DNA of 63,310 nt, the filler included, from Octopus bimaculoides (Eukaryota): NCBI RefSeq assembly GCF_001194135.2. It is 3 parts of 3 records of this genome, joined end to end, with 100 filler letters (N's around TTAATTAATTAA, not from the genome) between each part and the next. Parts side by side here need not be neighbours in the genome. Positions count along the whole stretch, not along the records: positions 1 to 30,801 come from NC_068981.1; positions 30,902 to 61,257 come from NC_068986.1; 1 more part is not named here. One strand, 5' to 3'. Each line of letters begins with the position of its first letter. Position 1 is the stretch's first letter. This document shows positions 27,221 through 60,810 of the stretch, piece after piece. The notes beneath the pieces were generated by a model. The model searched no databases. It saw nothing but the letters and a program-made list of their open reading frames with translations, and had not been told where the DNA came from. A program made the translations under genes and the position numbers.

Positions 27221-27257
27221 AGGCGCAGGCGTGGCTGTGTGGTAAGAAGCTTGCTTC
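27221..27257 (+). mobile_element. SINE family C head, cut off by a LINE
   Basis: aggcgcaggcgtggctgtgtggtaagaagcttgcttc stops abruptly where the consensus continues ccaaccac. Confidence 0.85.
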
Positions 27258-28410
27258 TGCGCATGCGTCGAGTTATTTGCTGTCTGGATTTTGTGAGAGT
27301 CGGACGTAGTTTTTGTGTTGCTTAGAAGATGTACTCAGACCTTAACGGGTCTGAGTTGTCGTCGTCGTCGTCGGAGCTGGTAAGGGCGGTCACAAAGATG
27401 GACGGGGTGTTGAAGACAAGGAGTTTTGCTGAAGCCACGGAGGCGAAGCGAAGGGAGCTGGATTTGGCTGGCCTGAAGGAGTATGAGAAGATGACTCAGA
27501 AGGTGGGCGACAGCGTGAGGTTGTCGCTTCCCAAAGGAATTATGGAGAGGATGGAAAAGAAAACGATCACCTAAAAGGTGTACTCGTTGAAAGGAAAACA
27601 GGCAGAACAGGTGGAGGCAGAAGTGGAAAAGGCGCTGAGGGAACGAACAAAGGAGATAACGTACATAACCACGGGAAGAAGATATGGGACAATGGTCACC
27701 CAATTTAGGACAGCAGAGGAGGCGAGGAGGCTGGCGAGTGTGGCAATGAAACAGAGGAAGTAGTGCTTCTGCCCACATACCTTGGAAGACTTCCAAGGTG
27801 AGGGTAGAAGCAATTCCACCGGATATATAAGTGGTTTGGGTAGCGGCAGCTGTCCTTGTTGAAAGCGAGAAGGTGGCTGTCCTCTAAGCCACAGAAACAG
27901 AAATAGGAGGGTGGAAAGGAAAGACACTTGAACTCATCATTCAGACGGAGGAGGATCAACTGGATAACTTGGCAAAGACGGTGACGTAGGGGGAAATCGT
28001 GCTGAGGGTGTGGGTAGAGGGCAGAGTACCACGTTGTTTTAAATGTGGCCAAAAGGGCCACGTTAGAGCATACTGACCTCTACAGAGGACAATGGCTGAG
28101 GAAACAGGGGAAGAAAAACACTGAGTCTGATGTGGTATCCCAGTCCAACTCCATCTCACCCAAGACTACTCAGACTCACCCTCCCCATACAGATACCAAA
28201 CCCACCCACAAGAAAACAAAAAAGAAAAAGAAGGAACAGACACCACAAAATTTAGAAGATCCTACCCCCGGTGAAAAAAGTTACAAATGCATGGCGGAGA
28301 GAATGATGTCACTAAGCGATGGAGAAAAGGATTGGACTGAGGGAGAAAAAGGACTTAGGACCCTAAGGCGGTGAGTGGTGTTACTCAGTGTGGGGTGAGT
28401 AGCACACTCT
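27258..28410 (+). mobile_element. L1/Tx1-type LINE 5' portion (5'UTR plus degenerate ORF1)
   Basis: ORF1 from ATG 27329 with stops and frameshifts. Zinc knuckle CFKCGQKGHVRAY* at ~28035-28076 (CX2CX4HX4C with the last C mutated to stop). Lys/Pro/Thr-rich C-terminal region. Confidence 0.7.
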
Positions 28411-29029
28411 TCATAATATCATTTTCAGATATCATTTATGTTATATTTTAATTTGTTTTTCATGTGTCATATANNNNNNNNNNNNNNNNNNNNNNNNNNN
28501 NNNNNNNNNNNNNNNNNNNNNNNNNNNNNNNNNNNNNNNNNNNNNNNNNNNNNNNNNNNNNNNNNNNNNNNNNNNNNNNNNNNNNNNNNNNNNNNNNNNN
28601 NNNNNNNNNNNNNNNNNNNNNNNNNNNNNNNNNNNNNNNNNNNNNNNNNNNNNNNNNNNNNNNNNNNNNNNNNNNNNNNNNNNNNNNNNNNNNNNNNNNN
28701 NNNNNNNNNNNNNNNNNNNNNNNNNNNNNNNNNNNNNNNNNNNNNNNNNNNNNNNNNNNNNNNNNNNNNNNNNNNNNNNNNNNNNNNNNNNNNNNNNNNN
28801 NNNNNNNNNNNNNNNNNNNNNNNNNNNNNNNNNNNNNNNNNNNNNNNNNNNNNNNNNNNNNNNNNNNNNNNNNNNNNNNNNNNNNNNNNNNNNNNNNNNN
28901 NNNNNNNNNNNNNNNNNNNNNNNNNNNNNNNNNNNNNNNNNNNNNNNNNNNNNNNNNNNNNNNNNNNNNNGTATGCATATATATATATATATATATATAT
29001 AAATATATAAAACAAATAATAAATGAGCA

Positions 29030-58800: not shown

Positions 58801-59734
58801 AGGCCGGAGACTGGCAATTGGAGTGCCGTCAGGCACTTCAGCTACTCTCTCGGACGGGCAATGCCGGCAACAGGAGTTCCACCGAGAATTTTTATAGCGG
58901 GTTAGTAGAGACCATGTCCGAAGACGCTTTGAGAGAGACCCTGGGCTATGAGAAAAATCACTTAATCAACCTATTCAGGAGAACGTTCGGGCCGGGGTGT
59001 TTGGATAATTACCAGAAATCTCAGGCTTGGCAGTGCTTCCGTGCGGCGTTACCGGTTCGTGACAAGCTATCTAAACGCAGAAGTGCCGTCTCGCCGACAA
59101 GCCCGAGGTGTGGGCAGGATAGGGACACCGTCTTGCACGAATTTGTGGAGAGTCCGGAATTATCGGGACTGGTAACTTTCGTCGAACAACTAATGTCAGT
59201 GATGGAAAGAGTACAGCTATCGGCTGAGTCTATCATCGAGATTGTGCCACCTCCTTCCCTTAGCAGGGAAAGGAAGGCTTGTTTTTTTCTGCGTAGTAGC
59301 CATACTGAAAGAAACAATATGGAAGACGCGTGTGACAGGCATCGTGACAGGGGTTGGTCAACTTCTTTAGTTATCACCTCAGTAGTAAGATCAGGCTGGA
59401 GAAAAGGTGTCAGTCACGGGATATATTTGTGAAAAGATGGAAACCTGTGGTAAGTAAGTTGGTTGCGATTGGCACCAGGTAAGTGCATTCAGGATGAAAA
59501 GTAAAGGTTCGACCCAGGTGGCCGGATGCCTTTCCTTTAGGGAATCCATTGCAAATTGCAATGAGCGTAATTTTTTTCTTTTTAAGTTTTTAAATTGTAT
59601 ATATTGTATCGTTATTCGTTTATCATTCGAGACTGTAATTTTAAGTGATTAGCAGCTACTTCATCTTTTTATGTTTGTTTGTCTTTGTTCGTCTCCTCTT
59701 TGTAATGCCGTCATGGCAAATTTTGTGAAAAAAA
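55816..59734 (+). mobile_element. L1/Tx1-clade LINE: ORF1 C-end, ORF2 (APE-RT-zinc finger), 3'UTR and A7 tail
   Basis: APE motifs (TVRGL, ATETK, LYAP, LGGFNA, WTW, TDHK, GYWKLN). RT motifs (KSAGFDGLLYEFY, NFRPITLLNTELKILAKVLAKRL, AQTCAIP). C-terminal PRCG...TVLH. Gap at 57929-58635; several stops and frameshifts. Confidence 0.9.
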
Positions 59735-60810
59735 GTAGCTTGCTTACCAACCACACGGTTCCGATTTCAGTCCCACTGCATGGCACCTTGGGTAAGTATC
59801 TTCTACAATAGCCTCGGGCCGACCAAAGCCTTGTGAGTGGATTTGGTAGACGGAAACTGAAAGAAGCCAGTCGTATATATATATGTATATATATATATAT
59901 ATATATATATATATATATATATATATATATATATATATATATATATATATATATATATATATGCATAAATACATAAATATATATGCATGAATACATAAAT
60001 ATATGTACATACATATATATGTATATACACAATATACATATGCATATATGGGTACAGTGCGTCAAAAACGTAAACAACATGTAAAACGAGAACATGAAAT
60101 AGAAGAACATGGAAAACTAGCTTTTTTGCGAACAACGAAAGACACAGATAGAAAAGCGAGACAAGCAATATAAAGAATAATCCCTTTATCAGTTGTCCAC
60201 TGCTTTTCGAAATGCGGAGAAGATAAAACAGTGGACAACTGATGAAGAGATTGTTCTTTATGTTGCCTGTCGTTTTTCAATTTGTTTCTTTCGTTATTCG
60301 CAAAAAAGCTAGTTTTCCATGTTTTTATATTTCATGCTCTCGTTTTTCATGTTTACGTTTTTCGACGCCCTGTAGCCATATATGCATGTGTATATACATT
60401 TATATGTAAGTATGTACATGTATGTATGTATATATGTATATATACATATGATTTATATTATTATGTGATTGAACGCCATTTCCAAGTGAGTTTTATCTAT
60501 ATGTGTGTGTGTGTGTGTGTGTGTGTGTGTGTGTGTGTGTGTGTGTGTGTGTGTGTGTGTATGCGTGTGTGTGCGTGTGTGTGTACGTGTATTTGTGTGT
60601 CTGTGTTTGTTCTACCTTTGTTCTACCTTTGTTTGACAACCAATTGCTGGTGTGTTTATGCTACCGTAACTTAGCTGTTCGGCAAAAGAGACCGATAGAA
60701 GAAGTACTGGGCTTACAAAAAATAAGTTCTGGAGTCGATTTGTTTAATTAAAGGTGGTGCTCCAGCATGGCCGCAGTCAAATGACAAACAAATAAAAGAA
60801 TAAAAGAATA
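59733..60810 (+). mobile_element. SINE family C missing its first ~20 nt, with a PLE-like foldback inside its microsatellite
   Basis: Head remainder 59733-59873; tail 60595-60810. Confidence 0.85.
60041..60386. repeat. Imperfect foldback, ~165-bp arms, PLE pLTR-like
   Basis: tgcatatatgggtacagtgcgtc...atcagttgtccactg is mirrored by cagtggacaactgat...gacgccctgtagccatatatgca. Confidence 0.8.

Follow-up and report, generated by a model that had tools for sequence, protein, structure and literature searches.

Site-specific insertion of L1-group LINEs and ORF1-only passenger elements into the head of an abundant SINE in Octopus bimaculoides

We analyzed a 63,310-nucleotide stretch of DNA from Octopus bimaculoides (RefSeq assembly GCF_001194135.2; the whole stretch is referred to below as the window), in which one retrotransposon begins at position 27258 and another ends at 59734, each bordering a part of the same, putatively tRNA-type, short interspersed element (SINE). 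Genome-wide comparisons established that a group of long interspersed elements (LINEs) inserts at one fixed base in the head of this SINE. The original prediction had claimed insertion at a single site with a 12-14 bp target duplication, and this claim is borne out by genome-wide flanks, 5'-truncated copies, concordance of SINE subfamilies across the insertions, and the relative ages of LINEs and SINEs. Taken as a whole, our observations are best explained (with a probability of roughly 0.7) by a model in which L1-type, probably Tx1-clade, LINEs and passengers encoding only open reading frame 1 (ORF1) would insert at the fixed SINE base by read-through target-primed reverse transcription.

At the first window junction, the SINE head at 27221-27257 ends with AAGAAGCTTGCTTC and is followed directly by TGCGCATGCG, with an ATG at 27329. 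At the second, GTAGCTTGCTTACCAACC begins at 59735, directly after the LINE end at 59734. Re-reading of the coordinates upheld both junctions (27257/27258 and 59734/59735) and the ATG as claimed (Table 1). The two junction halves map to different contigs of the assembly that we scanned (G000, 2.34 Gb), at C1:53.53 Mb and C6:50.77 Mb, and therefore represent independent events, as had been proposed. The gaps at 28474-28970 and 55085-55815 are gaps in G000 too, which leaves the second junction of each window copy unseen; the first gap is predicted to contain the tail of the element, GAAGCTTGCTTC, and the SINE body, and the second gap a GTAG-type SINE head, barring a partial deletion of the target. 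Three details of the earlier description required correction. The end of the 59734 element, described as A7, is the AAATAAA of its family with one change and not a poly(A) tail. Intact minus-strand SINEs assigned to 42657 and 43855 start at 43059 and 44314. A truncated SINE at 15722, raised as a caveat, contains no insertion of the LINE family, as its upstream DNA matched no other locus compared.

For tabulation of the flanks of 5' and 3' LINE ends, we used queries free of SINE sequence, with 30 loci per query. By eye, the 30 loci of the 5' query comprised 25 with the SINE head upstream (the query locus included), three tandem insertions with a LINE tail and duplication, one gap, and one other sequence. 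The exact LINE-tail pattern occurred at 300 places in G000, and NGWAGC followed directly in 225 of these, so that use of the site lies far beyond chance. Among the first 100 of these places by position, the SINE body followed 80 tails at a score of at least 60 (76 of them in exact register; shuffles scored 30 or less) and two more at scores of 45-51, for 82/100 in all. The other tails were cut by a gap after the duplication (3), tandem (4, two of these by eye), followed by the duplication and then other sequence (1), or without a SINE body (10). On the 5' side, 94 of 100 boundaries were scorable, with six at gaps, and the SINE head adjoined 46/94, compared to 1.9% of 3000 random windows. Element lengths among these SINE-head-adjoining copies ranged from 36 to 3263 bp. 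Relative to the threshold of more than 20% of flanks of one sequence type used in PMC4494074, the shares observed here, truncated copies included, were 82/100 at 3' flanks and 46/94 at 5' flanks.

The 3' junction is fixed across copies as AATAAA followed directly by GWAGC, and 5' junctions vary in truncated copies. Full-length copies have a 12-bp duplication plus an ambiguous AA. Truncated copies range from a full duplication down to small target deletions, with head ends peaking about 4 bases before the site. Tandem units are parted by the duplication only, with several unrelated 5' ends stacked there. The SINE subfamily base on the 5' side of the LINE matched that on the 3' side (27/2/3/12, p=1.6e-6; 46 rows, with 2 carrying other bases excluded), and private variants of the duplication were found at both flanks in L064, L099, L161, and L167. 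LINE tails of the main family are 95-97% alike, and the flanking SINEs are 89% (GTAG type) or 79% (GAAG type) alike. The subfamily match across the LINE, the common private variants, and LINEs younger than their flanks therefore indicate independent insertions and not hitchhiking. Off-target sites (L211, L093, L148, and L183) had target-like bases at both sides.

A few insertions departed from the usual arrangement. At L143 (G000:C2 ~113.778 Mb), a main-family tail lies in a second abundant SINE. The junction has a G, as at the usual target, and 33/33 other copies of the second SINE that we compared have TAAGTACCAGT; the G was either already present in a variant copy that was selected or supplied by the RNA. 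At L043/L092 (G000:C9 ~46.860 Mb), a variant form of the SINE head contains a second AGTAGCT core, and the insertion is located there, about 12 bases 5' of the usual site. Varied 5' ends follow the tail and duplication at L239, L242, L244, L245, L250, L252, L082, L070, L134, and L158, and further families beyond those characterized here therefore occupy the site. Many of these 5' ends carry a GCGCATGCG palindrome, which we take to be NRF1-like.

The target SINE is short, non-coding, dispersed, and present in high copy number, with about 165 bp followed by (TA)n. Its A-like and B-like boxes, which we label by a presumed RNA polymerase III (Pol III) consensus, are about 31 nt apart. Neither Rfam on one intact copy nor ARAGORN on the window returned a tRNA match, and Rfam on L131, a poorly suited stretch, returned only microsatellite-driven miRNA matches. 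A search for a LINE-like tail on the SINE found none in common, with best local scores of 13-16. The intact target site had 27,528 exact 25-nt matches in G000; set beside the 300 exact tails (both counts are lower bounds), about 1% of sites carry an insertion, and the effect on the SINE family is therefore small. Among the first 100 rows of intact sites, counted by hand, the GTAG:GAAG ratio was 74:26, with GTAG as the commoner subfamily and GAAG as the older, rarer one. Judged by position, insertion would split the A-like from the B-like box and may affect Pol III transcription. As had been suggested, the SINE may serve as a safe harbour for the LINEs.

The element ending at 59734 is a decayed LINE of the autonomous type, with its reverse transcriptase (RT) broken by a gap at 57929-58635. 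Pfam matches on pieces from the window and L083 to RVT_1 (E 7.6e-5) and zf-RVT (E 9.2e-5) were both below the curated cutoff, and tblastn aligned these pieces with intact relatives over the endonuclease and RT. Compared with solved structures, the intact relative P0121 matched L1 ORF2p at 5e-73 and R2 at 6e-27. In an RT tree of 36 rows, the element fell with its relatives in a 100/99 set, inside a 97/96 set with Branchiostoma, Paramuricea, Actinostola, and Caretta sequences and apart from plant L1s. By these comparisons, the LINE is shown to belong to the L1 group of apurinic-endonuclease (APE)-type retrotransposons lacking long terminal repeats (LTRs). The tree holds no named Tx1 or vertebrate L1 rows and so does not separate Tx1 from L1 proper. 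ORF1 of the Tx1 clade combines RNA-binding domains with a CCHC knuckle. Such Tx1-type features (a CCHC knuckle and RNA-binding neighbors) are present in the passenger ORF1, and membership of the LINE in the Tx1 clade is likely. Intact relatives of about 1155 amino acids, with RT identities of 44-46%, form clusters P0121, P0129, and P0133, with 352-732 members per cluster. A metagenome scan for targets of relatives in other organisms confirmed 0/20 candidate stretches. In Octopus vulgaris, 13 recently active L1-Tx1 families have been described in a paper whose main text does not contain the word "target" (PMC13282606).

The 27258 element had been read as a full LINE and the two window LINEs, tentatively, as one family, and neither reading survives. 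At 27258 lies an ORF1-only passenger of 1.3-1.5 kb whose complete relatives lack ORF2, the other element is of the ORF1-plus-ORF2 kind, and their families have the terminal ~45 nt in common. The gap truncates the window copy about 120 bp short of the end of its family. Complete relatives of 1.25-1.47 kb contain a 5' untranslated region (UTR), one ORF with a CFKCGQKGHIRAYC-type CCHC knuckle, a 3'UTR, both junctions, and target duplications, with no ORF2. Pfam gave no match for the 294-amino-acid passenger ORF, which resembles ORF1 by Atlas features, with neighbors carrying zf-CCHC, RRM_1, and ZCCHC3 RBD families. The passenger ORF also shows 42% identity to the ORF that precedes ORF2 in L088, and in L072 a passenger-type 5' end is joined to an ORF2 C-terminus. 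A comparison of two ORF1-only subfamilies, represented by 16 and 4 copies, gave 28 synonymous to 4 non-synonymous fixed changes and 80 to 229 private ones. A third subfamily comparison (4 versus 3 copies) gave fixed changes of only 0:3. Read from the substitution counts, ORF1 of the passengers shows purifying selection between subfamilies. The main passenger family was found at GAAG targets in 11/12 cases. These elements resemble HAL1 (half-L1), a non-autonomous L1-type derivative encoding ORF1 only, and differ from it in being non-mammalian, in having a CCHC knuckle in ORF1, and in inserting sequence-specifically (PMC5753468).

Another short family with distinct upstream sequence, the T form of the 3'UTR motif described below, and GAAG-type targets was observed at L189, L167, L168, L180, L185, and L176. 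At L183:395-700 (minus strand; G000:C4 ~129.508 Mb), a tRNA-like segment, presumably of tRNA-Glu, runs into the final ~200 bp of the ORF1-only family, and the element lies within a different SINE, between the copies of a 15-bp duplication. We rejected a tRNA-headed SINE family with a LINE tail, as the join was spanned by 1/40 matches and is a one-off, probably a template-switch chimera.

Most families carry an octamer, AGCT(A/T)CT, 48-94 nt before the LINE end and antisense to the junction AAG(T/A)AGCT. By genome-wide exact matches, copies of one subfamily with the A motif were found at 89 GTAG and 10 GAAG targets, and copies of the same main subfamily with the T motif at 2 GTAG, 18 GAAG, and 2 targets of other spelling (A versus T, p=2e-12). 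The T lineage is the youngest, yet it resides in the older, rarer GAAG SINE, and timing alone is therefore rejected as the basis of the preference in the main family; in an older ORF1-only family (91% alike), timing is a possible cause. T-motif copies carry common linked variants, in a sample enriched by design for T copies and A-with-GAAG copies, which disfavors copy-by-copy conversion of the motif base. An unenriched search for a deletion-marked lineage yielded 15 copies, one without a tail. GAAG-type junctions were present in 9/9 of its T-motif copies and in 4/5 of its A-motif copies (one off-SINE), with GTAG in the fifth. Overall, GAAG-type junctions were found in 13/14 tailed copies; the remaining one, L232, carries GAAG in the 5' copy of its duplication. 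The preference thus belongs to the lineage regardless of the motif base, which appears to follow, suggesting that the octamer follows target choice and does not cause it.

For 15 copies, we folded a 110-nt stretch of tail together with the 16 bases downstream, using 100 mononucleotide shuffles for each. With its real downstream bases, the window copy folded at -20.8, compared to a shuffled mean of -15.7, and 0/100 shuffles were as low. Pairing of the motif with the junction, at no more than 3/100 shuffles as low, was predicted for the window copy, L111, L189, L159, and L170. For copies of the L189 type, pairing is predicted across both the AATAAA of the LINE itself and the target, an arrangement that exists only in read-through RNA or inserted DNA.

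We propose that the LINE endonuclease reads a core of approximately AAGWAG and nicks the site between the A-like and B-like boxes. Given that the element terminates in AATAAA and lacks poly(A), its RNA would run on into the SINE of the donor. This SINE-derived tail could then anneal to the nicked strand and prime reverse transcription on matching targets, and each lineage would favor the SINE subfamily in which its donor sits. In free RNA, the tail may fold back on the antisense 3'UTR octamer, which would change by compensation, and ORF1-only elements may borrow ORF2 in trans via the common terminal ~45 nt. We regard the read-through step as having somewhat better than even odds. More tentatively, and with less than even odds, target choice may be partly inherited via RNA, with donor-SINE bases guiding homing and the hairpin partner base coevolving; at the target, strand exchange between the hairpin and both strands of the DNA is conceivable. 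If so, an L1-group LINE would be retargetable by a few 3' base changes, and LINEs and ORF1-only passengers would together form a SINE-parasitizing guild that follows its host SINE as the latter evolves.

Several results weigh against this model. RNA runs X21-X23, over a stretch that included an N gap, gave no informative RNA 3' end and no pile-up of ends at the junction; depth was equal on both strands, with the SINE in the thousands and the LINE tail in the tens. The junction base equaled that of the 5' duplication copy in 12/15 cases, and RNA-templated bases are therefore rare. Of the 15 folded copies, 10 did not pass at 3/100 shuffles; these include L171, L185, and L083, as well as every off-target copy and every copy of ORF1-only family A. 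In the main ORF1-only family, the octamer is absent although the exact site and the duplication are retained, indicating that the hairpin is dispensable for targeting. The A-motif test in the deletion-marked lineage comprised 5 copies only, and all copies examined are decayed. Finally, 48/94 5' ends had no SINE head at threshold; these include off-target and tandem cases.

Targeting by protein only, with the endonuclease alone setting the site, changes in it setting the subfamily preference, and the octamer being structural or incidental, is in our view unlikely. Endonuclease specificity is a known determinant for Tx1L, TRAS1/SART1, and R1Bm (PMC1919474, PMC4494074), and both the octamer-free elements at the same site and the target-like off-target sites fit such targeting. 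However, it leaves unexplained why a 3'UTR base 70-80 nt upstream is the exact complement of the preferred target, a switch seen within the main subfamily and again in the separate L189-type family, and why passengers dependent on a borrowed ORF2 show a preference of their own (11/12 GAAG). Endonuclease sequences are not comparable by lineage, as most copies are 5' truncated. The octamer might instead act as an antisense guide that selects the subfamily by pairing directly with target DNA whose top strand has been displaced; its complementarity to the duplicated segment, its covariation with the target, and its retention at several spacings across families fit this role. Such a role is improbable considering that A-motif copies of the deletion-marked lineage occupy GAAG junctions (4/5), that the L189-type complement reaches into the AATAAA of the LINE and not the upstream target, and that the main ORF1-only family is without the motif.

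We also considered whether one old LINE-in-SINE insertion was amplified as a composite together with its SINE halves, which would account for the SINE halves of full-length copies always being alike. The truncation and age tests rule this out, and we give it almost no credence: 5'-truncated copies of dozens of lengths adjoin the SINE head, both SINE subfamilies surround one LINE subfamily, divergence among the flanks far exceeds that among the LINEs, and tandem units are parted by the duplication only.

The read-through reverse transcription that we favor has precedents. Read-through annealing has been shown for R2Ol (PMC6530143) and for R1Bm as cited in PMC7265360, and in R2Ol, R1Bm, and SART1Bm, target-derived bases at the RNA 3' end aid priming at the nick, which is the mechanism that we infer here (PMC6530143, PMC7265360). 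Those elements target ribosomal DNA or telomere repeats, whereas here two target variants, the preference, and the compensating hairpin base are read from the genome alone. Repeat-targeting elements include Tx1L, found in Tx1D of Xenopus, and the crocodilian Tx1-Mar, Tx1-8_Crp, Tx1-4_AMi, and Tx1-9_AMi (PMC4494074, PMC1919474). As with the octopus elements, these are APE-type two-ORF LINEs that prefer another interspersed repeat and form tandem insertions, with truncated copies that exclude hitchhiking and non-autonomous partners that use the same target. However, their targets are piggyBac, Mariner, or Harbinger DNA transposons or LTR elements rather than a tRNA-type SINE, and their passengers are SINEs with small nuclear RNA heads rather than ORF1-only elements. 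In the parts of PMC4494074 and PMC1919474 available to us, we met no lineage-specific switch of target subfamily with a covarying RNA base.

Keno (U2), Mutsu (5S), Dewa (tRNA-Leu spacer), and Kibi/Koshi (microsatellites) are LINEs specific for multicopy targets, several of which are small-RNA genes or arrays (PMC4494074, PMC3706591). The octopus target differs in being a dispersed retroposon head, with a downstream flank that is SINE-specific body and not a tRNA gene. Dada elements likewise insert at a fixed position in a Pol III promoter, at the A box or next to it, but they are DNA transposons that reside in genuine tRNA genes and have a 6-7 bp duplication, and the available text of PMC3706591 does not contain the word SINE. 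Our literature search found no SINE-targeting LINE; its scope lay outside Kojima and Fujiwara 2004, Repbase, and the figures and supplements of PMC4494074, which could already record one. The SINE head joins the targets of sequence-specific APE-type LINEs, and the insertions that can be read there number in the hundreds and include ORF1-only passengers. Because the target comes in two variants, a natural retargeting experiment is recorded in the genome, in which lineages differ about 9:1 in opposite directions with an RNA base changing alongside. The endonuclease of APE-type LINEs reads only ~10 bp (PMC1919474), and this system makes it testable how such LINEs nonetheless gain single-site precision, a question relevant to site-specific LINEs as gene-delivery tools.

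Table 1. Positions in the window of the target SINE parts, the two inserted elements, and the adjoining gap
Feature	Position	Strand	Evidence
5' part of target SINE, GAAG subfamily	27221..27257	+	Sequence and locus comparison
A-box-like TGGCTGTGTGG	27232-27242	+	Label by presumed Pol III consensus
5' copy of target duplication	27244/27246-27257	+	Sequence comparison
ORF1-only non-autonomous element, HAL1-like	27258..28473	+	86-90% identity to complete 1470-bp copy in L067
Parts of ORF1-only element: 5'UTR 27258-27328; decayed ORF1 from 27329; CCHC knuckle ~28035-28076; start of 3'UTR	27258..28473	+	
Assembly gap; predicted: last ~120 bp of ORF1-only element, 3' duplication copy, SINE body	28474..28970		Inferred from complete family members
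Decayed autonomous-type LINE	55816..59734	+	Pfam; tblastn to intact relatives; 82-87% identity to gap-free 4.7 kb copy in L083
Parts of autonomous-type LINE: ORF1 C-terminus to 56197; ORF2 from ~56222 (APE endonuclease, RT, zf-RVT); 3'UTR ~59481-59734		+	
3'UTR motif AGCAGCTACTT, antisense to LINE-end/target junction; predicted pairing with read-through target bases	59651..59661	+	Motif comparison, folding
3' part of target SINE, GTAG subfamily: SINE body, then (TA)n	59735..59872	+	Sequence and locus comparison
3' copy of target duplication	59735-59746	+	Sequence comparison
B-box-like	59763-59773	+	Label by presumed consensus

Other features of the window were observed in passing. Its third part, 61358-63310, maps to G000 contig C12855, and the window thus consists of at least three unlinked pieces. 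A long inverted repeat at 54916-55084, with arms of about 70 bp and resembling a miniature inverted-repeat transposable element, lies immediately 5' of the gap that precedes the second element. By eye, we also noted ORF pieces at 9758-10823 and 41010-41441, which we take to be a pol/integrase-like region of an LTR element and a mariner-type transposase-like sequence.

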